Below, one piece after another: positions 6,245 through 25,650 of a DNA stretch of 30,326 bases (positions within the stretch are counted from its first letter, which is position 1; every line of letters starts with the position of its first letter). The position numbers and the translations under genes were made by a program. A model generated the notes under the pieces. That model did no database searches. It had not been told where the DNA came from and was given only the letters and a program-made list of their open reading frames with translations. The stretch is from an uncultured archaeon (lineage in GTDB: Archaea; Iainarchaeota; Iainarchaeia; Iainarchaeales; 0-14-0-20-30-16). The stretch is taken from positions 1-30,326 of the forward strand of contig CAZQQS010000006.1 in assembly GCA_964595665.1 (NCBI GenBank), given 5' to 3'.

Positions 6245-7798
6245 ATGAATTATACTATAAAAGAAATTATTGATAAAAAAGAAAATTTAGATAAAGAAGT
6301 AATATTAAATGGTTGGGTAAATAATTTACGTTTATTAGGAAAAATTGGATTTATAGAATTAAGAGATTTATCTCATAAAATTCAAGTTGTTTTAACTAGT
6401 CCTGAATTAAATGAACAAGCAAAAAAATTAACTATCGAATCTTGTATTACTTGTAAAGGTATTTTGAAACATAAGAAAGATGATTCTACAAAGTATGAAT
6501 TACAATTAAAAGAATTAATTATAAATTCTATTGCAACTAATTTACCATTTACAAATGCAAATATAGAAGAATTAAAACCAACAGAAGAAACAACTCAAAA
6601 ATATAGATATTTATATTTAAGAACTGAAAATGCACAAAAAAATATTATTTTAAGATCTAAAGTAACAAGAATAATTAGAGATTATTTATATAGTTTAGAT
6701 TTTAATGAAATTGAAACTCCTATATTAGGAAAAAGTACCCCGGAAGGCGCAAGAGATTATTTAGTTCCTTCACGAGTAAATAATGGTAAATTTTTTGCTT
6801 TGCCACAAAGTCCTCAATTATATAAACAAATTTTAATGGTTTCTGGATTTAATAGATATTTTCAAATTGCAAAATGTTTTAGAGATGAAGATTTAAGAGC
6901 AGATAGACAACCAGAATTTACTCAATTAGATATGGAAATGTCTTTTGTTAAAGAAGAAGATTTAATGCAAATAATTGAAGGAATATTAAGTAAAATTTGG
7001 AAAGATATTAAAGGAATAGATTTACAGATACCATTTACAAAAATGACTTATGATTATGCATTAAAGAAATATGGTTCTGATAAACCAGATCTAAGATATG
7101 GTTTAGAGTTCTCAGAAGACAAAGAAAAAGTATTTTTTAATGTTGAGAAAAATAATTCTATTTTAGAATATTTGGATAATCAAAAAGAAGTAAAGTTTTC
7201 TGAAAAAGGTAATGAATTAATTGTTTATATTGATTTACCTAAAAAGTTTGAATATTCTAAGTATACAAAATTAGGTAATGTTAGAATAGATTTAGCTAAG
7301 ATTTTAGGTTTAAATAAAGGTGAAGATAAATTTTTGTGGGTTTATGATTTCCCTATGTTTGATTATAGTGAAACAGAAAATAGATTTATGTCTATGCATC
7401 ATCCTTTTACTCAACCAAGAGATATTAATATGCCTTTAGAGGCAATGACTAGTAAAGCATATGATGTTGTTTTAAATGGCACAGAGCTTGGAGGAGGAAG
7501 TATAAGAATACATGACTCTGAGATGCAAAAAAAGATATTTGATTTATTAGGTTTAAGCAAAGAAGAAGTTAAAATTAATTTTGGATTCTTCTTAGAAGCT
7601 TTTAGTTCTGGAGTGCCGCCTCACGGAGGAATCGCTTTGGGCTTAGATAGATTAATAATGTTAATTTTGGGTGCTGAATCTATAAGAGATGTAATTGCAT
7701 TCCCTAAAAATAAAGCTGCTGAAGGTTTAATGGAAAGTTCTCCTTCTGAAGTTCCAAAATCCAAATATGAGGAATTAGGTATAATACTTAAAAAATAA
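6245..7798 (+). CDS. aspS: Aspartyl-tRNA synthetase, bacterial type, with shortened insertion (GAD) domain
   Basis: 517-aa ORF. N-terminal OB anticodon-binding domain (NGWVNNLRLLGKIGFIELRD). Motif 1 FNEIETPILGKSTPEGARDYLVPSR, QSPQLYKQ, motif 2 FRDEDLRADRQPEFTQLDMEMSF, MHHPFTQP, motif 3 GGIALGLDRLIMLILGAESIRDVIAFPKN. AGGTGA SD at 6235-6240, 4 nt before the ATG. Confidence 0.95.
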   Translation: MNYTIKEIIDKKENLDKEVILNGWVNNLRLLGKIGFIELRDLSHKIQVVLTSPELNEQAKKLTIESCITCKGILKHKKDDSTKYELQLKELIINSIATNLPFTNANIEELKPTEETTQKYRYLYLRTENAQKNIILRSKVTRIIRDYLYSLDFNEIETPILGKSTPEGARDYLVPSRVNNGKFFALPQSPQLYKQILMVSGFNRYFQIAKCFRDEDLRADRQPEFTQLDMEMSFVKEEDLMQIIEGILSKIWKDIKGIDLQIPFTKMTYDYALKKYGSDKPDLRYGLEFSEDKEKVFFNVEKNNSILEYLDNQKEVKFSEKGNELIVYIDLPKKFEYSKYTKLGNVRIDLAKILGLNKGEDKFLWVYDFPMFDYSETENRFMSMHHPFTQPRDINMPLEAMTSKAYDVVLNGTELGGGSIRIHDSEMQKKIFDLLGLSKEEVKINFGFFLEAFSSGVPPHGGIALGLDRLIMLILGAESIRDVIAFPKNKAAEGLMESSPSEVPKSKYEELGIILKK

Positions 7799-7845: not shown

Positions 7846-10800
7846 ATGATTAGTAGCTATAAGTATTTGCAATTTATTTTATTTTCTATATTGTGTGTTG
7901 GAATTGGATTTAATTTTATTTATTCTGATTCAATAACTAGTTGTATTTCAGATTTGGACTCAACATATTGGGATAAAACGCTATACTTACAAAATGATAT
8001 TAATAATTGGGATGCATATTGTTTTAATTTACAAGATAATTTTGAAGGGCATTTTTTGATTATAGATTTAAATGGGCATAATGTAATTTCTGGAGAAAAT
8101 AGTTCCAATTTTTTATATGTAGATAAAAATATAGATTATGTTTCTATAACAAATGGTGATGTAATTTTAGAAGATTCCAGTTCTGAATTTGTTGTCTTAA
8201 ATGATAATGGGGCAGTAGTAAATAATTTAAATTTCTTAGATTTAAATGTTATTAATGAAGATTATGCTTTTTTAAGAATAAATAGTTTTAATTCTTCAGA
8301 TCTTGATTTAAATTTTTCAGATTCAAATTTTACTTCTACAAAAGAACTTATTTTGATTGTGGATAGTAATATTTCTAATTTAAATATTGTAAATTTAGAT
8401 TTAAATTTGTATAAACCTTCAATAGGTGCCGTTGTAGATTTTATATATTTTAATACTTCTAATATTGGAAATTTAAATATTTTGGATAGTTTTTTTGATA
8501 TTTCACAATCTGGATTTATTTATTATTCAAACACTGATTTAAACTCTATTTCAGTATTAAATACAAACATAATTCATAATAATAATTATTTTATATTATT
8601 GAATTCAGGTTTAAATGAATATTTGGATATTAATTTTTTTAATACTAATTTTGTTTTTGAAGATATTTGTGATTTAGTTGTGTTAAAGTATCCCATAAAT
8701 TTGACTATTAGTAATTTTTATGGAAATCATGATGCCATAACTATTTATAATGCTTATTTATATTTGCATCAAGACAGATCTATAGAATTTACATTAGATG
8801 ATTCAAATATTTTGGTAAATACTTATTTAAATTTATCTGGAAATAATCAAAAAGATTACAATATAGTTTTAAATGACGTTAATTTGTTTTTGAGTGATAA
8901 GTTATTTAGTTATGGGAATCAAGTATTACTTAATTCTTTAAATATTTATAATTTAAATTATGATTCTATTGAAAATAAGACTATATTTCCTTATTTTTAT
9001 GATTTAAATATTTTCACAATAAACAATAGTGATATTAATTTATTAAACTTAACAACAAATCTTATTTATTCTTTTGGAGATATAAATTCAATTTTTTTTA
9101 AAGATAGTAATTTGTATTTAGATAATTCTAATTTAATAAATTTTCCTAATCCAATAAGTTTGAGTTTAACGTTTGATAATGTATTTGCAAATAAATTGAA
9201 TTTTTCAGAATCGGTTTTTAATCTAAATTATTTAGATTCTAACCAGGCTTTTTTTACAATTAAAAATGATTCCGATATAAATGAGATTAATTTTTTGAAT
9301 GTTGATTTTAATTTTAAAAGTATTTTAGATAATATGTTCTATTTCGAGAACTTAAGCGATAGTTATTTAGATTTAAATTTTTATAACTCAAGTATAGATA
9401 TTTATGATGTAAACAATCTATTTTATTTTTTAAATACAAATTTATCTCATGTTGGGATTATAGATTTTAATGTAATTAATAATTCAAATCCTAAAAACAT
9501 AATTTATTTGGAAGATTCAAATATATTTAATTTTACTTTGCAAGATTCTGTTTTGTTTGTAGATTCTGTTTTAAGTGTGGATGAAAACTCTAATTTAGAT
9601 GCTTTAGTATATAATAATATTTTTTATGATTATAATTTAGATAATCCATTTGTGTTTAATTATGGTAATTTAAATATAGATTTTAATACAGCTTTACAAG
9701 AGGATAATACAAAAAGAGAATTAATAATTTCTGATGATTATAATAATATTGGTGGAAATTTATGGTTAGATTCTAATGCAAATTATTCTTGTGTTTATGA
9801 TTATGATGAAGATGGTATTTGTGATTCTAATATGCAAATTTTGTTTTCTGATTTAAGTTATGGTTATGATTATTATCCTTTAATAGAAGATAGTTTTGAT
9901 TTAAATGTTTATGATATTTCTTTGAGTTCTACAAGAGCTGGAGCAATAACTGTAACTTGTAGTTTTGGTAATTTAGGAAAATTGGCTACAGAAGATTATA
10001 ATGTTTTATTTTATGTTAATAATGTTTTACAGAATACGAATAATTTAACAAATTTGTTTTTGCCTCAAGATGTAAATTCAACAACTTTCTCTTGGAGTCC
10101 AAGTACTGGAACATACAGTTTAAAATGTAGTATTGATTCAGATTTATCAGATATTAATGAAAGTAATAATACTTATACAAAAAGTTTTACTATTACTTCT
10201 GGTACAGTTGGTCCAGGTGAAACAAAAACTTATGATTTAAGTTCTAACTTTAGTTTATCTAATACAAATTTATCAAAGAATTCAAACATTATTTTATCAC
10301 CAAGTATCTCTAAATCTGGGACTGCAACATTTGGTAGTGCAGAATATAAAATTTATTTTTATAATGATTCAAATACAAAAGTAGAATTATTTGAATATGA
10401 TTTTTCAGATAGTGGTCTACCTTTAACAAATACTCATACTTTAACTTTAGATAATTTATTATCTTATGGTGAAATCTTAGATTTAGTTAATGCTCAAGGT
10501 AAAATTAATTTATATTTAGAAGTTAGCTCTTCAGATGATACTAAAGCAACAAATAATATTTCTCAGAAATTAATTACTATAGACTATTTAGAAGTTAATT
10601 TATCAGACATTTATTTAAATGGCGAGATTTTGTCTTCTGATTTAAATTTGAATTTAGAAGACGATTATAATTTTACATTTGGGTTGGATTATTTAGTAAT
10701 CAACTCTAATAAAAATGTAACGTTGAATTTTAGAACTAATAAAAGATTAGCTTATACTAAAACAAAATCTATTTCTGGAGTTGTTTTAGAAGAAACTTTT

Positions 10801-11835
10801 TCAGATTCAATTACATTAAATTTATTAGATTTTGTTAATGAAGCTAAAGCTAAAGAATTGATTTTGAATTTATTTAATTTTGATTTAACTAATGAAATTC
10901 ATAGACAAAGATATATGGACATATTAGATGATTTAGGAATAATTTATGATGGGGACTCTTTTGCCGATGAAGAATATTATTTGGAAGTTAATATTTTGGG
11001 ACAAGATTATTCAAATAGTTCAAATAATAAATTAAATATAGGTTTTTATTCGAGTTTTGTTTATGATTCTGAAGATTTAGAATTGGTGGATAAAAATAAA
11101 CCAGTTTCTTCTGTAAATACTGATTCTAAAGAATCTAATGTGCAAGAAAAAATAAATTATTATTTAAAATATAAGTCTGTTATTGGAATAGATGAAAATC
11201 AAATTATATTTTTATATGATGATAAAAATAATTTTGTTTCTAATACAGATGTTATTATAAAATTTAATGATGATTTGTTTTTCTTTAAAACAGATTCTTT
11301 AGGTAATTTATATTATAATCCAGAAAATGTTGGAACATATTTTATAGATGTAAAAAAATTAGGTCTAAAAGGTAGTTTTGAAGTATTAGATGATTATGTA
11401 AGTTCTGATAGCGATTATATTATTTTTGAGAATTCTGTTCTTTTTGGGGAATCCCAAAAAACTAGTATTTTAGTTTATTTTATAATTATATTTGGTATTG
11501 TTGTTTTATCTATTATTGGAGCATACTTTTTTTATCCTCGAAAGCCAAAAACAGAGGGTCATGATTTTATATTAACTGATAACTATTTAAAATCAGAATT
11601 CTTTGAAAAATCACAATTGGAAAAAGATATTATGTTGGCTAAACGGGGAGAAAGAATATTGGAAAAGAAAATCATTAAGAAAGAGTTAGAATTGGCTAAA
11701 AAAGAAGAATCTCTTTTAGAACAAAAAATTTCTAATAATAAAAGATATAGATTTAGAGCAAAAATAATTAAAATTAATAAAGAAGATAAAATCTTAGAAA
11801 ACAAGTTAAAGCAGAAAACAGGCTACGATTTATAA
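7846..11835 (+). CDS. Surface protein A: signal peptide + NosD-like right-handed beta-helix + CARDB-like modules + C-terminal TM anchor + coiled-coil cytoplasmic tail
   Basis: 1329 aa. Signal/anchor MISSYKYLQFILFSILCVGIGFNFIYS, then ITSC..C..IIDLNGHNVISG, a typical start for archaeal NosD-like beta-helix proteins. About 600 aa of degenerate Asn-ladder coils follow. Helix cap IGGNLWLD..YDYDEDGICD..YDYYPL (9748-9882). CARDB-like modules start at ~9898 (VTCSFGNLGKLATEDYNVLFYVNNVL..INESNN). TM helix at 11464-11535, followed by basic PRKPK. The 99-aa K/E-rich tail ends in TGYDL. A TATA-like box at 7816-7827 is centred 25 nt upstream of the ATG. Confidence 0.85.
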   Translation: MISSYKYLQFILFSILCVGIGFNFIYSDSITSCISDLDSTYWDKTLYLQNDINNWDAYCFNLQDNFEGHFLIIDLNGHNVISGENSSNFLYVDKNIDYVSITNGDVILEDSSSEFVVLNDNGAVVNNLNFLDLNVINEDYAFLRINSFNSSDLDLNFSDSNFTSTKELILIVDSNISNLNIVNLDLNLYKPSIGAVVDFIYFNTSNIGNLNILDSFFDISQSGFIYYSNTDLNSISVLNTNIIHNNNYFILLNSGLNEYLDINFFNTNFVFEDICDLVVLKYPINLTISNFYGNHDAITIYNAYLYLHQDRSIEFTLDDSNILVNTYLNLSGNNQKDYNIVLNDVNLFLSDKLFSYGNQVLLNSLNIYNLNYDSIENKTIFPYFYDLNIFTINNSDINLLNLTTNLIYSFGDINSIFFKDSNLYLDNSNLINFPNPISLSLTFDNVFANKLNFSESVFNLNYLDSNQAFFTIKNDSDINEINFLNVDFNFKSILDNMFYFENLSDSYLDLNFYNSSIDIYDVNNLFYFLNTNLSHVGIIDFNVINNSNPKNIIYLEDSNIFNFTLQDSVLFVDSVLSVDENSNLDALVYNNIFYDYNLDNPFVFNYGNLNIDFNTALQEDNTKRELIISDDYNNIGGNLWLDSNANYSCVYDYDEDGICDSNMQILFSDLSYGYDYYPLIEDSFDLNVYDISLSSTRAGAITVTCSFGNLGKLATEDYNVLFYVNNVLQNTNNLTNLFLPQDVNSTTFSWSPSTGTYSLKCSIDSDLSDINESNNTYTKSFTITSGTVGPGETKTYDLSSNFSLSNTNLSKNSNIILSPSISKSGTATFGSAEYKIYFYNDSNTKVELFEYDFSDSGLPLTNTHTLTLDNLLSYGEILDLVNAQGKINLYLEVSSSDDTKATNNISQKLITIDYLEVNLSDIYLNGEILSSDLNLNLEDDYNFTFGLDYLVINSNKNVTLNFRTNKRLAYTKTKSISGVVLEETFSDSITLNLLDFVNEAKAKELILNLFNFDLTNEIHRQRYMDILDDLGIIYDGDSFADEEYYLEVNILGQDYSNSSNNKLNIGFYSSFVYDSEDLELVDKNKPVSSVNTDSKESNVQEKINYYLKYKSVIGIDENQIIFLYDDKNNFVSNTDVIIKFNDDLFFFKTDSLGNLYYNPENVGTYFIDVKKLGLKGSFEVLDDYVSSDSDYIIFENSVLFGESQKTSILVYFIIIFGIVVLSIIGAYFFYPRKPKTEGHDFILTDNYLKSEFFEKSQLEKDIMLAKRGERILEKKIIKKELELAKKEESLLEQKISNNKRYRFRAKIIKINKEDKILENKLKQKTGYDL
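11788..11832 (+). other. Conserved extreme C-terminal cytoplasmic motif KILENKLKQKTGYDL (protein A)
   Basis: The last 15 codons of A align with the last 15 codons of B: 12 of 15 residues identical, and 4 of those use different synonymous codons. Confidence 0.7.
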
Positions 11836-11877
11836 GTAAAAGATAACTTTATAAATAATAAAGTAATTCATTATAAC

Positions 11878-11899
11878 ATATACTTTAATTAAAGTATAT
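11878..11899. promoter_or_regulatory. Perfect 22-nt palindrome atatactttaa|ttaaagtatat between genes A and B, followed by cgggcg and ttttt
   Basis: All 11 base pairs checked by hand. It contains the symmetric TATA-like tttaattaaa (11884-11893), centred 22 nt upstream of ATG 11911. It could be an operator, a promoter element or a terminator hairpin plus oligo-T for gene A. Confidence 0.4.
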
Positions 11900-11910
11900 C
11901 GGGCGTTTTT

Positions 11911-14900
11911 ATGGATTATAAATATTTGTTTTTGATTATATTTGGGTTTTTGTTTTTAAATTTAGTTTCGGCAATAAATATTACAAGTTGTCAAGGTATA
12001 GATTCTAGTTATTTAAACGAAAGTTTAGTTTTACAAAATGATTTGAATGAAAGTGTTCTTGCAGATTATAATGCCTGTTTTTATTTAGAAGATGATTTTT
12101 CTGGTGCTAATTTAACAATAGATTGTAATTTTCATACAATTTCTATAACTGCAAATAATGTTAGTTTAGATGCTGAAATATCTGATATTTTTGCAAATTA
12201 TTGGGAAGAAGAAACAGAAATGGATCCTATAATACATGCATTTTCTTTAGATAGTTTAACTTTTAAAAATTGTAATTTTGATTTAGAAGCTTATGTGTAT
12301 TATGATTCTGAAGATGATGCTAATTATGAATATGGTGTAAGTGTTTTAGAATTATCTGGTGCTGATGGTAATGTTTATGTTAATGAAATAAATATAATAG
12401 ATTCAAATATGTATGTTGAAGGTCAAGGAATTTCTTTTGAAGATTTTATTTTAGATTCTTTAGATATGAATTTTTATGGTTCTTATTTTGAACCTGTAGA
12501 AGTAGACTCGGAATACGAATTAGATTATGAACCTAATTTTATAGATTTGGAAAATGTTTTTTTAGGAACATTAACTATTAATGATTTAACAGATGGTAAT
12601 TTTGATTATATTAATTCTTTTGTAAAAGTTACAAATAAATTAGAAAGGTATGACTATGATTCTTGTAATATTCAAATAGATTCACAAACAGATTTAAATT
12701 TATTAATATTACAAAATGTTTCTTTAGATTTTTTAAATGTTTTTGATATGGAATATTATGCAGATGTATATGGTATTTGTGATCCTATAACTTATGATGA
12801 TTTTTCAGTATTAAGAGATTCTAATTTTCAAATTATTTTTGATAATGTAGATATAAATACTATTGGGTTTAAATATTTAAATTTAAATATAACTGAATAT
12901 GAGAATTTGTCTCCAATATCTTTAGAACCTTTAGTTTTAAATCCAGGTAATGCATTTTTAAAACTAACTAATAATTCAGATATTAACAATATTTTCTTTG
13001 AAGCATCAAATGTAAATTTGAATGCGGGATCATTAGTTTTACTTCAAGATAATAATGATTTAGATTTGATTATGGATTTAAATGATTTAAATATATTTGA
13101 TATCTTAGTAGGGGATACTGGAAATGCAAATATAATTACAAGCTTATATTCAAATTATAATGATGTAACTATTAATAATTTGAATTCTGAAGGTACAAAA
13201 TTAACAATTTTACAAAATATTGATTCTAACTTTAATTATTTTAATGTTTTTGATTCTTATTTTGATACTAAAGCTGCATTATTCTTTTTTGTAGAATATT
13301 ATGATGATTTTTTAGATATTAACTTTTATAATTCTCAAATAATAATTATAAATAATAATCCAATAAGTTTTTATGATGCTGAGGGTCTTTTTAGCAATAG
13401 TATTGATTATTTAGAAATATCTAATTTAGATTTAAATACTGATGAAAATATATTTTCTTTGAATAATACTACTATTGGAGAATTAATATTAACTGATTCA
13501 AATATTTATTTTAATAATTCTTATGCTTCTTTTGGGGATATTGATTCTGATTCAAATATTCAATCAGGATCCATATACAATAATATATTTTCAGCTAATT
13601 TTGAATATGTTGCTTATGCCGATGCAAATAATTTGTTTAATGTGGATTTTAACACTGTTTTAACGGAAGATCAAACAAAAAGATCTGCAATCTTAGATGA
13701 TGATGCTAATTATATTGGTGGTAATTTATATTTGGATGAAAATGGAAATAATGCATTATTTGAAGATTGTACTGAATATTTATATCCGGGAATATTTGAT
13801 TGTTCTTTAGATTTGGGTATGTCTACAGGCGAATCAATTTTTGATTATTATCCTTTGGTAGAATATTCTTTAAATTATTTGCCAGATATATCTGTTTATG
13901 GTTATGATTATTTGTCTGATTTTTTCTTTAATAATGGAAATTTAGATTTTAATGTTTTTTACACAAATTTAGGAAATAGTTCTACAGATATAAATATTTG
14001 GGTATATGTTGTGAAATCTTTAGAGGATTTAAATTTGCAGAAAAACAGCCCACATTTAAAATTAACGTCTTTAGTTACAGTTTTGCCAGATAATAATTAT
14101 AATTCTTTTTTTAGATATTCGGTTCCAGCAGATGTTGTTTGTATGGGTGAAAATTGTGGTGGACCTGGAGCAGGATTATATAGTATATATATTTTAAGCC
14201 TATTAAATAATGAACTATGTACTTTAGATATAGATTCTAATTGTGAAAATAATTATTTGTTTGAAGAAAATATATTTGCATTTTATGATGATGGAAATTA
14301 TTTGTTAGAAATTTATGATATTGATGTAAATCAAAATGTTGAAGGAAATATAAGAGTAGATTGTAATATTATAAATATTGGAGATATTAATTCTAATTTA
14401 GATTATAATGTTTTTTTGGGTTATGGAGATTATAATTATGTGTCTCACGAATATGAATTTGAATTCACTCAAGATAATATTTCAGAAAGCATTTCTGCTT
14501 TTGGTTCAAAAATTGTTTCATTTAACGTTGATGTAAATGCAGAAGATTATAATTTTAGATGTGAAGTTGCTGATTTGGGATACTCTGATGGCCAATACAT
14601 TAAAGAATTTACTTTTAATTCTATTGATTCTAATTCTGCTATAGATTTGGTTGCAGAATCTGTAGATTTAAATAGTTATAATGTTAATTTAGGCGAATAT
14701 ATAGATTTAAATTTTGTGTATTCTAATTTAGGGCCAGATAATGCTACTGATTTTAATTTAATTTGTGGTGTTTATAGCAATGATGTATTTTTGGATAATC
14801 TGTTTAATGAAAACATTTCAGAAAGTTTTTTTGGTACAGATTATTATGTTGTTTCTTTAGTTGGAGATATGGCTGGAAGTTATGATTTTAATTGTTATTT

Positions 14901-17900
14901 AATTTCAAATGTAGAAGCAGATTCAAATATGTTAAATAATTTTTTTACGAGTGATACTTTAACTGTTAGTGAAGGAATAGATTCAAATTATATTGATGTT
15001 TCTATAATTAATGTTGATGTAAATGATGATTATATTGAAATTGGGGATTCTATAAATGTTACTTGTGATTTTAATAATCTAAGTACTTTAGATACTAATT
15101 ATGATTTAAATGCAGAAATATTTGTTGTTGATAGTTGGAGTTTAATCGAAAACCATTCAGGAACATTATTAGAAAATACATCCAGTTCTTGGAGTTTTAG
15201 TGCAACAACAGATTCTTTAAGTGCTGGAGATTATAATTTAAGATGTATTATTGATGCTAATGAAGATATTAATTTAAATAATAATTCAGAAATATTGACT
15301 ATTAGTGTTTATGATGTTCCTGGAGAAAATACTTTTGTAGATTTAAATGCATCTTTATCTAGTTCTTCATATGTAACTAAAGGTAATGTTATTGAAATGA
15401 ATTTAACAATTGCAAATGATGGTAATAAAGCAACAGATTCTAATTATATTATTTATTTTTATACTGATAATGAATTGGAAGAATCTTGTACAATTAATAG
15501 GAATAATGTTTTAGCTCCAAATGATGGTGCAGTATTTGGTTGTGAAATTGATTCTAGTGATATTTCTATTGGGGCACATACTTTAAAAGGAGTAGTAAAT
15601 TATCAAGGAGTAGATAATAATTCAGATAATAATTCGTCAGAAACTTTAATTACTGTTCAATATGTTGATTTAAATGTTTCAAATATGCAAATCTCAGATG
15701 ATAATGTTATATCGGGGGAAACCTTTGACATGAATTTTGTTTTAACAAATTCAGGAGATGCTAATACTGATCAAAATTATATTGTGCAATTCTACTTAGA
15801 TTCAAATGAAATTGAATTTTGTTATCAAAATATTAATTCTGTTTTACCAAATGGTAATAATATAGTTTATACTTGTGATAATGTAGATACAACAGGATTA
15901 ACTTTAGGAGATCATAATTTGATAGGTTTAGTAACTTATTTAGGATACGATGTTAATTCAGAAAATAATTCTAATTTATTAAATATATTAATTACAGAAG
16001 CACCGATAACATATGTTGATTTGAATGCTTATTCTTTAGATTCAAATGTTAGTAGTTTATTATATGGCGAATCTTTAGATATTAATTTTGGATATCAAAA
16101 TGTTGGAAATGCAGATGCTAATGCAGATTATAATATTGTTTATTATATTGATTCTGTAGAAAAAGCTAATTATTTAATTTCAGATAATTTGTTATTTAAT
16201 ACTATTGATTATAATTCTTATGTTTGGGCATCTAATATTTTAGGCGATGTAAATGTTTATGTTTGTATAACTTATTCAGAAACAGAATATTTGGAATTGA
16301 ATAATTGTGTACAAGAAACATATCATGTTTATTATAGAGATATTTCTGTTATAAATGCAGAAGTAATTTCAGATGTGATTTATGGTCAAGATTTAAATAT
16401 TTCAGTAGATTTAAATAATTTGGGAGATTTTAACTCAAATGATGTAAATGTTTATGTTTATGTTTTAGATTCTCAAAATTCAGATAATAATTTAATAAAT
16501 CCTGTAAGTATATTAGATTTTGATGCAAATGATAGTTGGAATATAACTTCTAGTTTTAGTAATTTTAATTTAACACTAAATGATTTAAATATTTTAGTTG
16601 AAGTAATAACTACTGAAACAGATTATAATACTGAGAATCATTCGTCAATTTTATTTGGAAATGTTGCACAAATTTATTATAAAGATTTAAATGTTTATAG
16701 TGTAGAATTTGAAGATATTACTCCTGTTTATGGATCTAATGTGAATTTAGATTTGAATATTGAAAATAATGGTAATTTTGATGCAAATGATGTAACTGTT
16801 TTAGTTTATTTTATTGAGAATTCTAATACTGATAATAATTTTTTATATTCTACAATTGAAGACTTTGCTTTTGGAGAAACTACTACTTTAACTATTACTT
16901 GGGAAGATATAAATATTTTAGATGTAATAGATATTTACGTAGAATTGGAAGTATTAAATGATTATAATGAATTAGATAATAATAGATTATTTTCTACAGC
17001 TGCAACTGTTGGCTATGTTGATTTAAACTCATATATTGAAGTTCCAGATGTGAATGCTGGTTATACAATAGATATCAATTGTATAGTAACTAATTTAGGT
17101 AATTTACCAGCCGATAGTTATACTATTTCATATTATCTAAATGGTATTTTACAAGACTCAAATACATTAACAAATTTGTTAGCAACTGAAAGTTATGCTC
17201 AAACATTTTCTTTTAGTTCTAATGTAAAAGTTGATGACCAAAATCTTGGATGTGTTGTTTCTTTTGATAGTGATTTTAATAATTTAAATGATTCTTATTT
17301 TATAGATAGAAATATAGGTGCAGATAGTGATGTTGATTTAAGTATAGAAGCAATAACATTTACGGGTGCATTAAATACTTTGACAGAAAAAATAATAGAT
17401 TGTAATATTGGTAATGTGGGCTCAGAAAATGCTGAGTTAGATTATAATGTTTTGTTTTATGTCAATAATGTTTTAACTGATTTTAATTTAATTTCAGAAG
17501 ATTTAAACATTAATAATTATAATTTAATAAGTTTTTCATGGACTCCTAAAGTTAATGGCACATATACTTTCAAGTGTTTGGTAGATTATAATGTTAATAA
17601 TTATTTAGGATTCGATCAAAATTTAGATAATGATTATTTGACTACTAATGCAACAATTAATTATGTTGCACCAACAAATAATTCTTCATCAAGCGGAGGT
17701 AGTAATATTTCTGGAACTCCCAAAATAAATGCTGGTAATTCTATTACGTTTATTTATAATCCTTTGAATACTTATAGTAATATTTATTTAGATAGTGTTG
17801 ATTTAGAATTGTATTCTGAGTTTTTAATTAGACCTAATTTGAAATTAAACATTTTTCCAAATATTCCTAATTTATATTTAATTTCTAATCCAGATATTAA

Positions 17901-18438
17901 AGTATTAAAATATTTTGAATTTGTATATTCTGGCGAGCAAGATAATTTAAAAAATGTTAAAGTTAATTTTAGTATAAGAAAATCAGAACTAATTGATCCC
18001 ACAAAAATTAAATTGGCAAGATACCATAATTCTCAATGGGTATATTATGATGTTGTTTTTGAGGATATGGGATATTATTACAAATTTACAGCAAACATTC
18101 CTGGGTTTTCATATTTTGCAATTGTAGATTATAATGTTGTAGACGAGGAAATAGAGGTTGTAGTACCTAAAGATGAAAATGTATTTGAGTTGCCTGTAGT
18201 TGATGAGAATAAAGTTATTGTTGAAAATATAAGTATAAAAAAATCTTTCAAACCAACTTATAACCAATTTATAATTGGTTTGGGAATTATAGCGATATTA
18301 ATTTTATTAGTTTTGCTTCTAGTTAATCTACATAAAAAACGAAAAGGTAACAATTATGCTTATAATTTTAAATTAGCTCAAACTGAAAATAAGATTTTGG
18401 AAAAGAAGTTAAAAGAAAAAACAGGTTACGATTTATAA
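11911..18438 (+). CDS. Surface protein B (paralog of A): signal peptide + NosD-like beta-helix + ~11 tandem CARDB-like modules + PGF-pre-PGF-like domain + TM anchor + short cytoplasmic tail
   Basis: 2175 aa. Signal peptide MDYKYLFLIIFGFLFLNLVSA, then INITSCQG..C..LTIDCNFHTISI. Helix cap IGGNLYLDENGN..DYYPL (13714-13857). Eleven ~105-115-aa modules carry the CARDB pattern (x-N-x-G-x..D/N-Y/F-x-V/I-x-F/Y-Y..NN). PGF-pre-PGF-like domain ending IPGFSYFAIV (PGF codons 18100-18108). TM helix at 18268-18330, followed by HKKRKG. The 35-aa tail ends KILEKKLKEKTGYDL. Confidence 0.9.
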   Translation: MDYKYLFLIIFGFLFLNLVSAINITSCQGIDSSYLNESLVLQNDLNESVLADYNACFYLEDDFSGANLTIDCNFHTISITANNVSLDAEISDIFANYWEEETEMDPIIHAFSLDSLTFKNCNFDLEAYVYYDSEDDANYEYGVSVLELSGADGNVYVNEINIIDSNMYVEGQGISFEDFILDSLDMNFYGSYFEPVEVDSEYELDYEPNFIDLENVFLGTLTINDLTDGNFDYINSFVKVTNKLERYDYDSCNIQIDSQTDLNLLILQNVSLDFLNVFDMEYYADVYGICDPITYDDFSVLRDSNFQIIFDNVDINTIGFKYLNLNITEYENLSPISLEPLVLNPGNAFLKLTNNSDINNIFFEASNVNLNAGSLVLLQDNNDLDLIMDLNDLNIFDILVGDTGNANIITSLYSNYNDVTINNLNSEGTKLTILQNIDSNFNYFNVFDSYFDTKAALFFFVEYYDDFLDINFYNSQIIIINNNPISFYDAEGLFSNSIDYLEISNLDLNTDENIFSLNNTTIGELILTDSNIYFNNSYASFGDIDSDSNIQSGSIYNNIFSANFEYVAYADANNLFNVDFNTVLTEDQTKRSAILDDDANYIGGNLYLDENGNNALFEDCTEYLYPGIFDCSLDLGMSTGESIFDYYPLVEYSLNYLPDISVYGYDYLSDFFFNNGNLDFNVFYTNLGNSSTDINIWVYVVKSLEDLNLQKNSPHLKLTSLVTVLPDNNYNSFFRYSVPADVVCMGENCGGPGAGLYSIYILSLLNNELCTLDIDSNCENNYLFEENIFAFYDDGNYLLEIYDIDVNQNVEGNIRVDCNIINIGDINSNLDYNVFLGYGDYNYVSHEYEFEFTQDNISESISAFGSKIVSFNVDVNAEDYNFRCEVADLGYSDGQYIKEFTFNSIDSNSAIDLVAESVDLNSYNVNLGEYIDLNFVYSNLGPDNATDFNLICGVYSNDVFLDNLFNENISESFFGTDYYVVSLVGDMAGSYDFNCYLISNVEADSNMLNNFFTSDTLTVSEGIDSNYIDVSIINVDVNDDYIEIGDSINVTCDFNNLSTLDTNYDLNAEIFVVDSWSLIENHSGTLLENTSSSWSFSATTDSLSAGDYNLRCIIDANEDINLNNNSEILTISVYDVPGENTFVDLNASLSSSSYVTKGNVIEMNLTIANDGNKATDSNYIIYFYTDNELEESCTINRNNVLAPNDGAVFGCEIDSSDISIGAHTLKGVVNYQGVDNNSDNNSSETLITVQYVDLNVSNMQISDDNVISGETFDMNFVLTNSGDANTDQNYIVQFYLDSNEIEFCYQNINSVLPNGNNIVYTCDNVDTTGLTLGDHNLIGLVTYLGYDVNSENNSNLLNILITEAPITYVDLNAYSLDSNVSSLLYGESLDINFGYQNVGNADANADYNIVYYIDSVEKANYLISDNLLFNTIDYNSYVWASNILGDVNVYVCITYSETEYLELNNCVQETYHVYYRDISVINAEVISDVIYGQDLNISVDLNNLGDFNSNDVNVYVYVLDSQNSDNNLINPVSILDFDANDSWNITSSFSNFNLTLNDLNILVEVITTETDYNTENHSSILFGNVAQIYYKDLNVYSVEFEDITPVYGSNVNLDLNIENNGNFDANDVTVLVYFIENSNTDNNFLYSTIEDFAFGETTTLTITWEDINILDVIDIYVELEVLNDYNELDNNRLFSTAATVGYVDLNSYIEVPDVNAGYTIDINCIVTNLGNLPADSYTISYYLNGILQDSNTLTNLLATESYAQTFSFSSNVKVDDQNLGCVVSFDSDFNNLNDSYFIDRNIGADSDVDLSIEAITFTGALNTLTEKIIDCNIGNVGSENAELDYNVLFYVNNVLTDFNLISEDLNINNYNLISFSWTPKVNGTYTFKCLVDYNVNNYLGFDQNLDNDYLTTNATINYVAPTNNSSSSGGSNISGTPKINAGNSITFIYNPLNTYSNIYLDSVDLELYSEFLIRPNLKLNIFPNIPNLYLISNPDIKVLKYFEFVYSGEQDNLKNVKVNFSIRKSELIDPTKIKLARYHNSQWVYYDVVFEDMGYYYKFTANIPGFSYFAIVDYNVVDEEIEVVVPKDENVFELPVVDENKVIVENISIKKSFKPTYNQFIIGLGIIAILILLVLLLVNLHKKRKGNNYAYNFKLAQTENKILEKKLKEKTGYDL
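13879..17664 (+). repeat. Array of ~11 tandem CARDB-like protein modules within gene B (protein-level repeats, ~315-345 nt each)
   Basis: Successive modules start (V/I/K)D(L/I)(N/S).. and contain NLGN/NIGD/NDGN/NSGD/NVGN/NNGN, then D(Y/F)N(V/I)x(F/Y)Y, and end with (D/E)xNxxNN. Examples: IANDGNKATDSNYIIYFY, LTNSGDANTDQNYIVQFY, NIGNVGSENAELDYNVLFYV. Confidence 0.75.
17713..18126 (+). other. PGF-pre-PGF-like domain in protein B
   Basis: ..NVKVNFSIRKSELIDPTKIKLARYHNSQWVYYDVVFEDMGYYYKFTANIPGFSYFAIV matches my memory of the archaeal PGF-pre-PGF domain (F.v.ksw....i.L.ry....W..l.t.......y.a..pGFS.FAi). Confidence 0.55.
18391..18435 (+). other. Conserved extreme C-terminal cytoplasmic motif KILEKKLKEKTGYDL (protein B)
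   Basis: See the A motif. Codon differences are atc/att (Ile), tta/ttg (Leu), aag/aaa (Lys) and ggc/ggt (Gly), with the peptide conserved. Confidence 0.7.
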
Positions 18439-18440
18439 GT

Positions 18441-18788
18441 TTATTTGGATTGCCAAGTAATAATATCTCCAAGTTTAAATTTAGAATAATGTTTTGTGGG
18501 TAATTCAATTAAATAAGTGCAAGGTTTTTTAGGGCTATAATGCAAACAAAATGGCTTTAAGATTGCTTTATCCACTACTTTTTTATCGTTGTCTAAGAAT
18601 ATTGCACATATTGGGGTAAACACAAATAACATGTGTATTGAATTTCTTAATTTAGCTTGTTTCTCCAAATAAAATATTAAGGCATAATTAAATTTTGTTT
18701 TGAACATTAGTCCTAAGGCCTTTGAAAAGAAAGATTTTGCGAGTTTGGTTTTTATAGTTAGGCAATTTTTGTCGTTTATATATAACAT
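18441..18788 (-). CDS. DUF192 (COG1430) domain protein
   Basis: The ORF track begins at a TTG (18812). The first ATG is 18788 (MLYINDKNC...), 28 nt downstream of a minus-strand TATA-like box (18810-18823), so I prefer 18788. AKSFFSKALGLMF..HMLFVFTPICAIFLDNDKKVV..YLIELP fits the DUF192 pattern (rGLM..M.f...piD..Fld..g.Vv..yvLEl). The stop is 2 nt from the stop of gene B. Confidence 0.75.
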   Translation of the reverse strand: MLYINDKNCLTIKTKLAKSFFSKALGLMFKTKFNYALIFYLEKQAKLRNSIHMLFVFTPICAIFLDNDKKVVDKAILKPFCLHYSPKKPCTYLIELPTKHYSKFKLGDIITWQSK

Positions 18789-18809
18789 AAAGCATAAAAT
18801 AATAGAAAA

Positions 18810-18823
18810 CAATATAAATATAC
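18810..18823 (-). promoter_or_regulatory. TATA-like box (tatatttatattg on the minus strand) for the DUF192 gene
   Basis: Centre is ~28 nt upstream of the minus-strand ATG at 18788. Confidence 0.4.
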
Positions 18824-18877: not shown

Positions 18878-18896
18878 TTTTATACAAATATATATT
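18878..18896 (+). promoter_or_regulatory. TATA-like region (tttataca / aatatatatt) upstream of gene C
   Basis: The two overlapping AT boxes are centred ~29 and ~20 nt upstream of ATG 18911. A GGTGA at 18898-18902 could alternatively act as an SD if the TSS is further upstream. Confidence 0.35.
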
Positions 18897-18910
18897 TGGT
18901 GAGTGATATT

Positions 18911-19045
18911 ATGGGATTATCTGACTTATACTACAAGTTAGAAGAAAAATATTATGCTAGCTTAGATTGGTTTGATTCGAAAGGATTACACTTTTTTTAT
19001 AATTTTGATGCTTGGTTACAAAGTAAGAATATACCTTCTTTTCCA
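18911..19045 (+). other. Conserved cytoplasmic N-terminal peptide of protein C (MGLSDLYYKLEEKYYASLDWFDSKGLHFF..IPSF)
   Basis: Aligns with the D N-terminus: MGL.D.YY.LE.KYY..LD..D..GLH.....D......IPSF, immediately before the single TM helix. Confidence 0.7.
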
Positions 19046-22000
19046 ATAATGACTTTGTTATTGTTGATTTTTATTGCTGTTGTTGTTTTGGTAATATTAT
19101 ATTTCTTAGGTGTTTTAGGTACATCTATGACTGTTAATTTACAATTAGTTAACTCTAAAGACAACTACACTATGGCAAACATATCATTTATGGTAAATGA
19201 TAGTGTTAAAAGTGAATCTTATGTTACTGATAGTTCTGGTGAAGCTAAAGTAAAAGTTCGTAAAAATATCCCATTTTACGTAACAATTAACTCATCTGAA
19301 TATATTTTAGAAAATTCTGAATTTACTGCTTATGAAAGTAATGAATTAATTAAAGTTTACTTAAAGAGCTCATCAGCTTTATTAAGTTCTAAAGTTTTAA
19401 AGATCTTTGAGAATTTTGATTCTGGAATTTTGTTTTCTGAAGCAATAAGCGTAAATTTAACTTGTACTGGTAATTCAAACTATAACGAAACTATAGAAAT
19501 ATTGTCTGGTGTTAGAGATTTAAGCGATTTGCCAGAAGATTGTGGTAATTTAGAAGTAAGTGTAGATGAATACAATTATTCTAAAAGTTATAACTTAGCT
19601 AATCATGAATTTGAAGTTGCAGTAGATATTGCAGTTCCTAAAGGAACTATTATAATTAATGTATTAAATAACAGTTTAGAGCCAATTTCTAATGTTCAAG
19701 TTACTGCTTATTCTAATAATGTTCGTTATGCAGAAAGTTTAACTTCTGAAAGTGGAGTTGTTCAATTTGAATTAGATGCTGTAAGAGATTATACATTTAC
19801 TTTGAATCATTTGGGTCAAGATTATTCTACTTTAGTTACTTCTAATATGGAATCTGAATGTAATGGAAAAGTTTTAAAAAACGAAACTAAAACTTGTTCT
19901 TTAACTATGTTGGCAACAAATATTGGAAAAATTAACTTAGAAATATATGATGTTTCTGGTAAACCAATAACTAATGCTACAATTAAAGTATTGAAAAACA
20001 ATGTAGAACATTATAATTATAACTTAACGGCTGGAGATGCTGGAAAATTCATTTTTGGTGTGCCAGAATTAAGTCCATATAGAATAGTTATTGATTCTTT
20101 TGCATATATGATTTTTGATAAAGAAATTATGCCTTCTAATACTCCTACAAAAATTAATTTGGAGCCTGTATTAGATTCTCCTGTATTAAATGTTTTAGTT
20201 TTAGCTAATGGAGATCCAGTAGCAAAAGCAAATGTTCAATTGTATAAAGAGAATAATTTGATTTTAACTAAAGTAACTGGTGCCGATGGTATTGCTTATT
20301 TTGATAGATTAGAAAAAGATGTGCCTTATAGTGTTAAGGTATTAAAAAGTGATTACTCTCAAAGTTCTGAACCTTTGATTTTAAATCCAAGAATAGAAAA
20401 TACAATTACTGTTAATATGGTTGTTGGAAAAGGTAATGTAAATGTTTATGGTTATAATAAACAAGGTGTTGCTTTAGATGGTTTAACTGCTGAAATTTAT
20501 GATGTTTATACTAATAGAAAATTAGGTGAAGCACAATTAAAAGAAGGTTTGGCAACAATTTATGGTGTAAGTGCTGATAAAACAGTTTATGCTAAATTAG
20601 TTTCTGATTCAGGAGTAGGTTATTCTTTAGTTTCAGATATTAAAGCAAATTTCAATTCTGATTTAATAGTATATTTTAGTGATTATTCTAATAATTTTAC
20701 AATGGAAAATATTGGTATATTTAATTTAGATGGTTCATCAGTTTATACTGTGCCTTACCAAGTTGTAGAAAATAATGAATATTATGGTTTATTTTTATTA
20801 AATGTTCCAAAAGGTGCATTTAATGAATCTGAAATTTTATTTGTTGGTGGAATAGATTTAGAAAATGCAAATATTTTAATTAAAGATGCAAAAATGTTGA
20901 ATGCGAAATTAGAAAAAGGTTTGACTTATACTTCACCTTTAGGTTTTGCAGAAGATATGTTGAATAAAACTCAAGACGATGGTATTTGGGCTCAATTAAA
21001 AGCATCTAATTTAAACCCTGGAACTTATATCGTAAAAGTAAATTTTATTATTGACTCAGATCCTAAATCTCAATTATTTAATTTAGGTTATAGAGCTAGT
21101 TTGAAATCTGGTGGAACATACTTAAGATATCCTATAGATAATGTTTTGGGCCAAAATGAAAGTGCATCTAATAAATTAGGATTTTATTCTGAATTAGCTA
21201 AAAATGTAAACTTTAGAATTGGAAGTTTAAATTGTGTAAATTCTGGTTGTATAGAAATGACTGCTCAAGATGCACAAGGAAATAGAACTAAAGTTTATGA
21301 TGAATTATATTCTGTTTATAATTTGTCTACTGATTTAACTTTTAAAATAATTTCTGCACAAAAAACAACTTACAATGATTTAGTTTTTGAGATTGCATCT
21401 TTGAATAATGGATTAGATATTTCTAATGTTAATTTAAGATCTAATTCTAATAATTTAATAGTTCAAAAAACTACTAATAAATATACTACTAAATTAAATG
21501 AATTCGGACCAAATGTAGAATTAAATGGAAATATTAATTTTGCAGCAAATAAATCTGGAACTAATATTTTGAAAATAACTATTTATAATAATAAAAATGA
21601 AGAAATATTTACAAAAGAGATTGCTGTGACTGTAGATGCTCCAAAAGATTTGAGAGTAGAATATTTGCCAGCATTAATTGTGCCTTATGTAAATAATTTA
21701 GGTGCTGTATTTGTAAGCGATGCTTTAGATTCAACTCCTGTAGAAGCACATGTTAGTGCATATTTAAACGATGTTTTAATTGGTTCTGGAGTTACAGATT
21801 TTGAAGGTAAAATTCCTTTAGAAATAACTAAACCAAGTTCTGGAGATTCTTTAAAATTAAAAGCTACTGCTCCAGGATATAATGCTATAGAATCTGAATT
21901 AAAAATAACTGAGAATATTTTAATTGCTGATGTTCCTGAAATTACATATAATATTAATATTGATGAATTAGATTATTTAGTAAAGAATATTACTTTTACA

Positions 22001-25000
22001 ACTCCTTTACCAAATAAATTAAAAATACAAAGAATTAGTTTTACTAATAATGAATTTAATAAATTCTTAGAAGTTAAACATAATTTAAGAGCAAATTATG
22101 AATTTGAAAAAACTTTGAGTTTAGAGTTATCTGCAAAATTAACTACTGATGGAAAGAATTTATTAGAGCCAAAAACAATTAATACTTTTTTAGATTTGGT
22201 TGTAACATCTAATGAAATTAATGAAGTTTGGAATGTAAAAGTACCCGTTACTTTCTACATCCAATTATATGATTCTTTAGATAGTGTTGATTGTTTGAAA
22301 TTAGAGGTTTCTAATGATGATTTATCTGCAGAAGAATATGGTTTTAAATTAATTAATACTTGTACTTACAATGAAGTTGCTACTGAATTGTATAATGTTA
22401 AAACTTTTGTTGAATGGTCAGAAAATAAATTAGGTGAATTTGAATATGATAAAAAGATAATTGATTCTGAAGGTATGGATTTATTTGAATCTATTTCTAA
22501 GAGCACAAGTTATTCTTTATTATTCAAACCAAGTTCTAAAATATCTTCAGGAAAATCAAAAGCAAATTTTATAGTAAAAGCATATTATAGAACTAATTCA
22601 GGATTGCAAGAATTAGTTGTAAATAAAGAATTAGATATTATTTATAGTAAATTAAGTAATTGTTTAAAAATTACTACATCTGATGGTACTTTAATTAATC
22701 CTTCTGGTGTAAATAACCCTATTGTTGTTGGAGTAAGTCCATTTGGTATGGGTATGAATGCAATGAATGGTTTATATGGCAATTCTTATAATCCTTATTT
22801 AACAAATTCTTATGGTTCTGCAAATATTGTGCCAAATAGTGCAAGTAATTTATGGGATCAATTATCTTCAACATCAAATACTCAAGGTAATTTTAGTACT
22901 GCTGCAAATTTAGCAAGTTTAAATAGTAATTCTGGTGTTGGTTCAAATAATGTTCAACAAATGATGTTAATGTTACAAATGATGGGTGGGAGTTATGGTG
23001 GAATGAATCCCCAAATGTATTTGGCTCCTACAAGTAATTTAACTATTACTAATACTTGTGCTTACGATGTGGATGTTCAAGTTGGGGCTGCTGCTCAAAT
23101 TATGGTTAGTCCAAATTCATCTACAATTACTATTGGAAGTAATTCTCAAGTAACGGTAACTGCAAATAGTTTGCCTGGAATTTATAATTTAAATATTTTA
23201 GCAGGTTATAATGGAAATTTAAATCCGTTTGCTGTTTTACCAATAAATGTAATTGATTATGCTTCTGAAACAGTTCAAGATGATTGTTTTAAAATTGAAG
23301 GTGAACCAACATTAGATATGAGTTCGTTTACAAAAAATTATAAACAATTAAAAATTTACAATTATTGTTTTTCAAAAGGAGTTGTGTTTGATGATGCAAA
23401 TCCTATAGAATTAAATGCTTTATTTGCTGCTGAAGATTTAGTTATGAAAGACAAAGATGGAAAAGATGTTAAAGTTTTAGATAAAGGACAAAAATATGCT
23501 GAATTAAAAATAATTAAAAGTCCACAAATAGAAACAAGTAATACTTATGGTAAATATCAATATATAGAATTATTAATTTTGAAAAATTCTGCAATACAAG
23601 AAGTTAGTTTTAATAATTATGCTGGTACAAATACTTTGAGTGATACAGCTCAATCTTTAAGTGTTTTAAGAAGTGCTGCAACAGCATTAAATCAAAATGT
23701 GAACTTTAAAGCATTAGTTACAATTAATTCAAGAATTGGTTATGGTATGACTGCTCAAAAGAAAGCTGTTGTAAAAACATTAACAATAAGAGATTTATGG
23801 AATTTATTGGCTTTGGCTGGTGCTGGAGAATTAGATGCTGGAAATAGAACTTGTACTCCTAATAAATGGAGTTCATTTATTGATGATGATATTTCTTACA
23901 GTGTAAAATATTCTCAAATAAAAGATAGAATTCCATTAAATAATGAGAGTTGGGATTTATTAGATAAAGATTGTTTTGGATCATATGATAATGTTAAATT
24001 TAAAGACGATTATTTAGAACAAACTTCTAATGGAATAACTGTTAAATTAACTCCTCATTTCAAAGATAGAAAATTGTATTTTGATATTGATGTTAAAGGT
24101 TCTGGAGATAAATTTGAATCTACATATGATTTTGGTTATACTTTGCAATCATATTGGCATAGTGAAACACCTTTGCAAAAAAGAGATAGAACTTTGAAAT
24201 TCATTTTAACAATTACAGATGTTACTGCTGGAGACCCTGCTAAAGATCCAACTGCAGATGCAAAAACTCAAAATACAAAAGATGAATTTTGTATTGATAA
24301 GTTTGGTAATGAATGGAAATCTTTGAGTACTTATGGTTTTGGTTCTTTAGAAGGATTTAATAATGGAAATATGTTAAGTTTTGATTATAGAACTACTGTT
24401 ACTCCAGATTGTACAAAAACATTTTGTGATGCAGAACAATTAAAGAAATATTTGAAAGGTAAATTTACTACTTCTTTGTCAACTAATATTGTTTATGAAA
24501 CTTATTTGTCTCAAAAATATGTTGTTAAAAATGCAACTGATAAGAATGTAATTGAATTGTTGCCTTCAAAAGTATTGGATAAAGTTTCAATGTATTTCTT
24601 AGAAAAATATTTAGCTGAAGCAATTGCTGATACGGCTATTGAAACAACTGGATTTGATAAGTTTAAAAACTTGGTTAAAGAAATGCCAAATTTATTTTTA
24701 GTTACTACTAGTGGATGTTATACTGGAACTACAGCTTATGGTTTTACTGTAGTTGGTTCAAATAAATGTTATTATAATGCACAAAAAATGTCTCAAGATG
24801 CTTCAGGACAAACATATATGAAAGATATTTTTAAAGGTGCTTTTGACGTAGTATTCTTAGTTCCTGAAACTAAATGGATGTTAATAGGTTTTAATCAAGC
24901 TTGGAATGTAAAAGTTGAAACAGTTTATTTGAAACCTGATAATTATAAAATGTATTTTGAAGGAAGTAATTTCTTAAGTTATGATGCTAATGTATTTGGT

Positions 25001-25524: not shown

Positions 25525-25650
25525 ATGGGATTGAGAGATTTTTATTATAGTTTGGAAAACAAATATTATGGTTTGTTAGATAAATTAGACAAATCAGGAT
25601 TACATGTTTACAAGGTTGTAGATAAAGTAGATAAAGTAATACCTTCTTTT
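25525..25650 (+). other. Conserved cytoplasmic N-terminal peptide of protein D (MGLRDFYYSLENKYYGLLDKLDKSGLHVY..IPSF)
   Basis: See the C motif. It is far better conserved than the ectodomains that follow. Confidence 0.7.

Follow-up and report, generated by a model that had tools for sequence, protein, structure and literature searches.

A conserved C-terminal tail on a family of giant surface proteins from uncultured archaea

What keeps the last residues of two very large, diverged proteins nearly constant? The question is raised by a 30,326 nucleotide stretch of DNA (hereafter the window; positions 1 to 30,326 of the forward strand of contig CAZQQS010000006.1, GenBank assembly GCA_964595665.1) from an uncultured archaeon of the Iainarchaeota, with a guanine and cytosine (GC) content of 24.7%. 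Two adjacent genes on the same strand of the window, here called A and B, encode giant proteins that are ~30% identical over ~1160 aligned residues and that both end in KTGYDL (Table 1). An initial annotation, made from the letters of the window alone, had pointed out this shared extreme C-terminal motif, and its sequences and coordinates are confirmed. The starting positions that it gave, 11788 in A and 18391 in B, are correct and fall on the K codon, one codon after the D/N with which the motif begins here.

The terminal motif and selection on the peptide

The match between the two C-termini is not due to chance. A degenerate DNA pattern for E..LK.KTGYD[LF] followed by a stop codon occurs twice in the window, compared with 0.00 expected occurrences (100 shuffles). 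The last 16 residues of A and B are identical at 13 positions, and the best of 267 other gap-free 16-residue windows reaches 11/16; the global A-B alignment misplaces the C-termini, and its windows served only as a background distribution. A 'TGYE' near the end of the open reading frame (ORF) at 34..2958 was considered as a third copy of the motif and rejected as a chance resemblance (the orthologue in the related sequence L001 reads YGFE, and there is no transmembrane (TM) segment). This ORF encodes 974 amino acids (aa) with no hydrophobic segment or family match and ends in ...GAEQTGYEILLS.

Much the same peptide is written in different codons. Over their last 16 codons, A and B differ at 9 of 48 nucleotides, and the codon differences listed in the initial annotation (atc/att, tta/ttg, aag/aaa and ggc/ggt) are all present. 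The proportion of differing synonymous sites (pS) is 0.75 (6/8 synonymous sites) and the proportion of differing nonsynonymous sites (pN) is 0.07. Across the 21 pairs among the seven tails described below, the last 16 codons have pS of 0.38 to 1.04 and pN of 0 to 0.22, with pN/pS of ~0.1 to 0.25. Synonymous sites are near saturation and the motif shared by A and B is not a recent DNA copy. The ratios indicate that purifying selection acts on the peptide and not on the DNA, as had been proposed from the A and B codons. In addition, A and B of L001 are alike at 32/48 nucleotides, and A of the window and A of L001 at 34/48. Paralogues within one genome are thus no more alike in DNA than orthologues are, so gene conversion does not explain the identity of the motif.

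The position of the stop codon is also fixed. It directly follows [LF] in all tails, despite the use of either TAA or TAG and despite differing 3' flanks, and all insertions and deletions that separate tails of 35 to 99 aa lie upstream of the motif. A fixed stop position fits the recognition of a free C-terminus.

An ORF of 73 aa, rich in L, F and S, lies antisense to the tail of A (11583..11804, minus strand) and has no counterpart opposite B; it was treated as an artefact, the expected mirror of AAR/GAR codons. An Rfam search of the window gave no match, and no relevant tRNA, promoter or terminator was found around the A-B junction. The spacer between A and B (11836..11910; 15956..16014 in L001) contains an AT-rich TATA-like box, TTTATAAATAA, and the window and L001 share an identical block just 5' of the ATG of B, GGGCGTTTTTATGGA. 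A separate promoter or initiation region of archaeal type is probable for B.

Relatives carrying the tail and the limits of its distribution

We compared seven tails from the window (A and B) and four other assemblies or samples (L001/L018, L002, L011/L016 and L009). All seven fit the consensus [DNE][KA][IA]LE..LK.KTGYD[LF]-stop, in which KTGYD is invariant (7/7), and orthologues retain the motif. A looser element, Y.F[KR].A[KQY], lies upstream of the consensus, and the whole module spans ~24-30 aa.

The tail-bearing genes are found at two loci. At locus 1, the gene order in the window is CNNM (minus strand) ... CxxCxxCC, aspartyl-tRNA synthetase (AspRS), A, B, DUF192 (minus strand) and two N-anchored giants. 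This order is kept in L001/L018, and in L002 a single mosaic gene replaces A and B. A full-length search with A recovered P0002 (54% identity) and P0003 (52%), both of which terminate in the motif. It also recovered two distant proteins with unrelated tails, P0004 and P0005. The orthologues of A are P0002/P0012 and P0003, and the B orthologue of L001/L018 ends in ...NAILEKELKEKTGYDF. At locus 2, the order is a giant, DHH (minus strand), ribosomal L44e (minus strand), a membrane protein, SMC and cytidylate kinase. The giant is a third paralogue (P0007/P0014) of 2000 aa, ending in DKALEKRLKEKTGYDL. The tail-bearing gene of L009 (20% GC), which ends in EKILEKKLKDKTGYDL, is also located at locus 2. 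Assembly GCA_030154545.1 holds both loci and so has three tail-bearing genes.

The motif is kept across the split between L009 and L011, whose proteins are 46% (SMC), 69% (L44e) and 54% (DHH) identical. The last 18 residues are identical at 12/18 positions between L009 and L011 and at 14/18 between A and L009. Over all compared pairs, the tail end is the segment conserved best, with identity at 12 to 18 of the last 18 residues, compared with 33-71% in the adjacent ectodomain and 17-44% in the TM region.

The ectodomains themselves are mosaic. P0003 (L002 967..6075) resembles P0002 in its N-terminal part, B in its middle (59% identity to residues 1702-1916 of B) and A in its C-terminal part. 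The locus-1 and locus-2 paralogues of one assembly (P0012, L018 10001..16645, and P0014, L016 10001..16003) are 48% identical overall and share one block of 110 residues that is exactly identical, which suggests recent gene conversion between them. The chimeric P0003 and the identical block together imply that the ectodomains swap segments, with the tail end staying constant. As the membrane-proximal domains of A and B differ (a beta-sandwich in A versus a PGF-pre-PGF domain in B), the terminal module is the sole shared part of their C-terminal regions. The module has thus been retained on two different membrane-proximal domains and through recombination of the ectodomains.

To define the distribution of the tail, we ran a 35-position profile, with no word index, against 1.84 billion representatives that stand for ~15 billion proteins (E <= 0.001); these include NCBI and JGI proteins of the tail-bearing assemblies. 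The only matches were A, B, P0002, P0007 and one unrelated repeat protein, a false positive. A pattern scan of one genome per species (185,579 species) gave eight matches, one of which is true (L009, at locus 2); the seven others were rejected as chance matches in short ORFs or lacking the stop codon. The pattern scan of metagenome contigs gave 0 matches in a collection that evidently lacks this lineage, since the L001 JGI contig was not recovered even though the pattern matches it locally. A family scan of metagenome contigs gave 600 pattern matches, none of which was confirmed, and a scan of viral contigs gave 0. A word-indexed search with the last 64 aa of B, a method that is insensitive to short queries, found no candidate, and the same type of search with an alignment of the C-terminal region returned only P0009, a truncated fragment. 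The tail gave nothing above noise against Pfam, NCBIfam and PDB. 'KTGYDL' occurs in no paper of the searched library, where no comparable tail on archaeal giants is described. In line with the initial annotation, which did not recognise a described signal, these searches found no description of it.

A sorting tag, in the sense of a signal carried by many cargo proteins, is not supported. The profile search led to one paralogous family, the genome scan added one further genome, and an orthologue in a sister lineage has no motif; a proteome-wide C-terminal sorting tag was rejected, as both searches matched one family only. On this sequence evidence the tail is a lineage- and family-specific module, predicted to be cytoplasmic. 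The family that carries it comes from uncultured archaea of 20-25% GC that form a narrow clade. The sister-lineage protein, P0004 (L012, 30% GC), is a positional orthologue at locus 2: L012 shares the order RNR...U32 - Metallophos ... MJ0538 - giant - DHH ... SMC - Cmk. In SMC, L012 shares 39-41% identity with L009 and L011, a distance only slightly larger than the one that separates L009 from L011. P0004 retains the membrane-proximal beta-sandwich and the TM helix.

Topology, tail structure and resemblance to known systems

A and B each contain exactly two strongly hydrophobic segments, a signal-like segment at the N-terminus and a TM helix near the C-terminus, and basic residues directly follow the TM helix (PRKPK in A and HKKRKG in B). 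The N-x-S/T sequons (31 in A and 42 in B) and the CARDB domains lie between the two hydrophobic segments, which makes a type I topology with the tail inside the natural reading. Based on the positive-inside rule rather than a dedicated topology tool, we infer that both tails are cytoplasmic. The initial annotation had placed them on the same side, and this fits the signal-like N-terminus, the single C-terminal TM helix and the basic cluster after it. The domain content (CARDB, beta-sandwich) suggests that A and B may function as adhesins.

The tail lengths of 99 and 35 aa reported initially are correct. In A, the basic cluster PRKPK is followed by a proximal motif, a long E/K-rich helix and the terminal module. 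The proximal motif, YDF.L..NYLKSE.FEK.QLEKDI..AKR.E, is conserved among A-type proteins and B lacks it. The tail of B corresponds to the minimal shared module, consisting of the basic cluster, a Y.F+.A+ element and.E.KILE.KLK.KTGYDL.

We modelled the last 232 aa of A using AlphaFold2 (AF2) with a 3-sequence alignment, which gave a mean predicted local distance difference test (pLDDT) score of 60, i.e., low confidence. The predicted order is a beta-sandwich, the TM helix, a disordered juxtamembrane linker, a long helix that extends to ...KQKT (query residues 150-228, pLDDT ~60) and a non-helical GYDL. By alignment, the beta-sandwich just outside the membrane is common to A-type proteins, the locus-2 paralogues and the tail-less P0004. 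The helical part of the tail varies from ~22 to 79 residues. We measured the hydrophobic moment of five tails at 100 and 102.9 degrees and found no amphipathic or heptad periodicity above shuffles (p 0.23-0.92, 2000 shuffles). The tail helices look like charged single helices rather than coiled coils or helices lying on the membrane, and a two-stranded coiled coil was rejected for want of heptad periodicity. The lack of coiled-coil periodicity favours an arrangement of a spacer plus a linear motif.

Table 1. Coordinates of the giant genes of the window and of their parts.
Feature	Position	Strand	Description and basis
Gene A	7846..11835	+	1329-aa giant type I surface protein; ends ...NKEDKILENKLKQKTGYDL-TAA; from N to C: signal-like N-terminus, N/D/S-rich repeats, CARDB, beta-sandwich, TM helix, 99-aa tail
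A membrane-proximal beta-sandwich	11179..11385	+	AF2 strands, residues 15-83 of the 232-aa query, pLDDT 64-84
A C-terminal TM helix	11467..11532	+	Kyte-Doolittle peak 2.96, aa 1208-1226; AF2 helix, query residues 111-132
A predicted cytoplasmic tail	11536..11832	+	99 aa; alignments; AF2 linker then helix
A terminal motif and stop	11785..11835	+	DKILENKLKQKTGYDL + TAA; last 16 codons 11785..11832, stop 11833..11835
Gene B	11911..18438	+	2175-aa paralogue of A; ends ...QTENKILEKKLKEKTGYDL-TAA; signal peptide, CARDB repeats, PGF-pre-PGF domain, TM helix, 35-aa tail
B PGF-pre-PGF domain (TIGR04213)	17890..18126	+	aa 1994-2072; NCBIfam E 6.6e-09, 35.9 bits, cutoff 28
B C-terminal TM helix	18268..18330	+	Kyte-Doolittle peak 3.46, aa 2120-2138
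B predicted cytoplasmic tail	18331..18435	+	35 aa, HKKRKGNNYAYNFKLAQTENKILEKKLKEKTGYDL
B terminal motif and stop	18388..18438	+	NKILEKKLKEKTGYDL + TAA; last 16 codons 18388..18435, stop 18436..18438
Giant C	18896..25519		Type II, N-anchored
Head of C	18911..19060		
Giant D	25525..>30326		Type II, N-anchored; open-ended at contig edge
Head of D	25525..25680		

The tails resemble the PGF-CTERM/archaeosortase A signal (TIGR04126) in their C-terminal position on archaeal surface glycoprotein-like proteins and in having a TM helix followed by basic residues. B additionally contains a PGF-pre-PGF domain, which often precedes PGF-CTERM. The initial annotation had nevertheless set this arrangement apart from PGF-CTERM, and we agree. 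PGF-CTERM proteins end within a few basic residues past the TM helix and the signal occurs on diverse cargo, whereas the tails of A and B continue for 35-99 aa past the basic cluster and are found in one family. No PGF tripeptide precedes the TM helix, where A reads ...GESQKTSILVYF and B reads ...KPTYNQFIIGLG; the sole PGF in B lies inside the PGF-pre-PGF domain, ~60 aa upstream. The NCBIfam CTERM models gave no PGF-CTERM match at E up to 10, and no modelled CTERM sorting domain reaches its cutoff. The best CTERM-type match, to Heimdall-CTERM, scores 11.9 bits (cutoff 24) and is limited to the TM helix. In B, a plain TM helix and a 35-aa tail occupy the place where PGF-pre-PGF proteins usually bear an archaeosortase signal.

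Other known C-terminal elements were compared with the tail. The GET/TRC type of tail-anchored protein was rejected because both A and B carry a signal-like segment at the N-terminus and a large ectodomain (1200-2100 aa), and extend for 35-99 aa past the TM helix. The HbYX proteasome-docking motif was also rejected, as the tails end in G-Y-D-[LF], with Tyr third from the end and Gly before Tyr. The ESCRT-III MIM1 element, with the consensus (D/E)xxLxxRLxxL(K/R), is a C-terminal helix that binds MIT domains. The DKILENKLKQK segment fits D-x-x-L-x-x-[KR]-L-x-x and matches the first four consensus positions, but the last two fail (L-(K/R) is K-T here) and the motif continues with GYD[LF]. Low-complexity helices rich in E, K and L match MIM1-type patterns easily. 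Y-D-L and Y-D-F also fit the class II PDZ-ligand pattern (hydrophobic-x-hydrophobic-COOH), a pattern that carries very little information.

A parallel in design is offered by the variant-specific surface proteins (VSPs) of Giardia, a multi-copy type I family with a variable, recombining ectodomain, a conserved TM segment and an invariant CRGKA cytoplasmic end (PMC3091692). In the archaeal family, likewise, each genome has at least three paralogues, whose ectodomains are mosaic and whose KTGYD[LF] end does not vary. It differs from the VSPs in being archaeal and unrelated in sequence, in the length of the tail (35-99 versus 5 aa) and in copy number (3 versus ~100-200). The likeness is an analogy of design only, and there is no evidence of antigenic switching in the archaeal family. 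Its paralogues, mosaicism and invariant end place the family among variable surface families with a constant cytoplasmic tail. The motif is a new instance of this known design principle, an inner "handle" peculiar to the family rather than a general sorting signal. A further parallel is with the adhesins of wall-less, host-attached minimal bacteria (Mycoplasma P1 and P110/P140) and with PfEMP1, large type I proteins that are encoded side by side and recombine, and whose conserved cytoplasmic C-terminal parts tie to internal structure. The Pfam and PDB searches detected no homology to these proteins or to any other known family of this design.

Possible roles of the tail and neighbouring genes

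We propose, with a probability of roughly 0.45, that the invariant end of this family-specific tail is a docking peptide for a shared inner partner. The tail would consist of three parts: a basic stop-transfer cluster, a variable E/K-rich single helix that acts as a spacer, and the invariant ...LE..LK.KTGYD[L/F]-COOH. The last turns of the helix and the free C-terminal peptide would together form a short docking site, which would serve one shared cytoplasmic or inner-membrane-face partner. The ectodomains would then be free to diverge and recombine as the link to the inside stays constant. The support is indirect and comes from the constraint on the peptide, the fixed C-terminus, the presence of the module irrespective of ectodomain type and tail length, and the absence of coiled-coil character. 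The initial idea of a tag read by a cytoplasmic partner is a plausible hypothesis.

Several observations weigh against docking. P0004 has no motif and ends in RPRRKQGLESLAENI, 15 aa past the helix, with an unrelated tail; it does without the motif, which must be dispensable for the basic fold and for anchoring. The tail does not stand out in every comparison, as 20% of windows between A and P0002, and 40% of windows between B and its L001 orthologue, are conserved at least as well. The motif is known from only ~5 assemblies or samples of one clade, which makes the comparative signal shallow. No neighbouring gene is common to both tail-bearing loci, and the gene neighbourhoods of the two loci yield no candidate partner. 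The AF2 model of the A C-terminus, from which the predicted helix comes, is of low confidence.

A docking peptide would matter because, in many tiny archaea that depend on a host, giant surface proteins take up the dominant share of the coding capacity. An invariant end on fast-evolving, recombining giants provides a bait of 6-16 residues for an inner partner, and the motif is in any case a simple sequence marker of this family. Its importance is limited by its confinement to one family of one narrowly sampled clade, whose sister lineage does without it.

The alternative that survives best, which we regard as possible and rather unlikely, is a role in biogenesis or stability with no dedicated partner, in which the tail would be a stop-transfer or topology determinant, a proteolysis-resistant cap or a contact for lipid head groups. 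The basic cluster and highly charged helix directly past the TM helix are consistent with such a role, the family-restricted distribution fits an intrinsic property of the protein, and the sister-lineage orthologue copes with a 15-aa tail. A generic stop-transfer or charge role could, however, do without both the invariant KTGYD[LF] and the fixed position of the stop, and the lack of an amphipathic moment above shuffles makes it unlikely that the helix lies on the membrane.

It is less probable that the tails pair with one another, A with B or as homo-oligomers, so as to assemble the giants into a complex. A and B are adjacent on one strand and share the module, and the AF2 model contains a long helix. 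Pairing is hard to reconcile with the hydrophobic periodicity of the tails, which at 3.5 residues or 100 degrees exceeds that of shuffles in none of them, and the part shared with B includes only ~22 helical residues. Furthermore, the locus-2 paralogue bears the tail with no adjacent partner gene, and L002 has its single mosaic gene in place of the A and B pair.

A C-terminal degron or quality-control mark, through which a protease or unfoldase would control turnover or certify complete translation, is doubtful to a slightly greater degree. C-terminal recognition peptides in general occupy the extreme C-terminus and have a hydrophobic last residue, and the motif shares this position, with a fixed stop and L or F at its end. 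Nothing links it to any protease. A separate mark of completion should also be unnecessary, since any product truncated before the C-terminal TM anchor would be released in any case.

A general sorting or anchoring signal of the PGF-CTERM/archaeosortase kind, present on many unrelated surface proteins, would suit the C-terminal position and the PGF-pre-PGF domain of B, but it is largely refuted by the single family recovered in the exhaustive profile search, the missing PGF motif, the length of the tail past the TM helix and the lack of any CTERM model at cutoff. Finally, gene conversion does occur in the family (the 110-aa block) and the antisense ORF does overlap the tail of A, but for the A/B pair a recent conversion or a nucleotide-level element (a terminator, RNA motif or antisense gene) is refuted by the synonymous divergence between A and B, by paralogues being no more alike than orthologues, by the lack of an Rfam match or terminator-like site, and by the antisense ORF having no counterpart opposite B.

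Docking could also be read more speculatively, and we consider it improbable that this extension is correct: the KTGYD[L/F]-COOH tail would couple a trans-membrane attachment apparatus of a tiny episymbiotic archaeon, with A, B and A2 as adhesins that plug into a dedicated inner component. Candidate tail-binding components are the equally conserved, cytoplasmic N-terminal heads of the type II giants C and D, or a cytoskeletal or ESCRT-like protein. Were this the case, surface contact with a host would be coupled, mechanically or functionally, to the inside of the cell, and the tail would be the prokaryotic equivalent of docking tails of the integrin or PfEMP1 type.

C and D each begin with a head of ~45 aa that is predicted to be cytoplasmic; a TM helix comes next, and then a very large ectodomain. 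The heads share the consensus MGL[SR]D[LF]YY.[LM]E.KYY..LD..D.[KS]G[LI]...[FY]...D......IPSF, which the orthologues in L001 and L002 retain and which matches nothing in Pfam or NCBIfam. By these predicted topologies, the cluster would comprise two giants with a shared inner C-terminal tail and two with a shared inner N-terminal head. At the contig edge (~30150..30324), the sequence of D becomes low in complexity and rich in Pro/Ala (...PAPAPAPAAPAAVPAAAPAAPAAAPAA...).

The DUF192 gene (COG1430, PRK03760-like; 18441..18812, minus strand) is convergent to B and starts 2 nucleotides past its stop codon. Its position is kept in L001, L002 and L018, and it is absent beside the locus-2 paralogue. 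The AspRS (6245..7798) is of the bacterial type (aspS_bact, 580 bits) in a context that is otherwise archaeal (L44e and DUF7343 on related contigs). It is only 517 aa long, compared with ~590 aa for the model, which it matches in two stretches, and part of the middle of the model appears unmatched.

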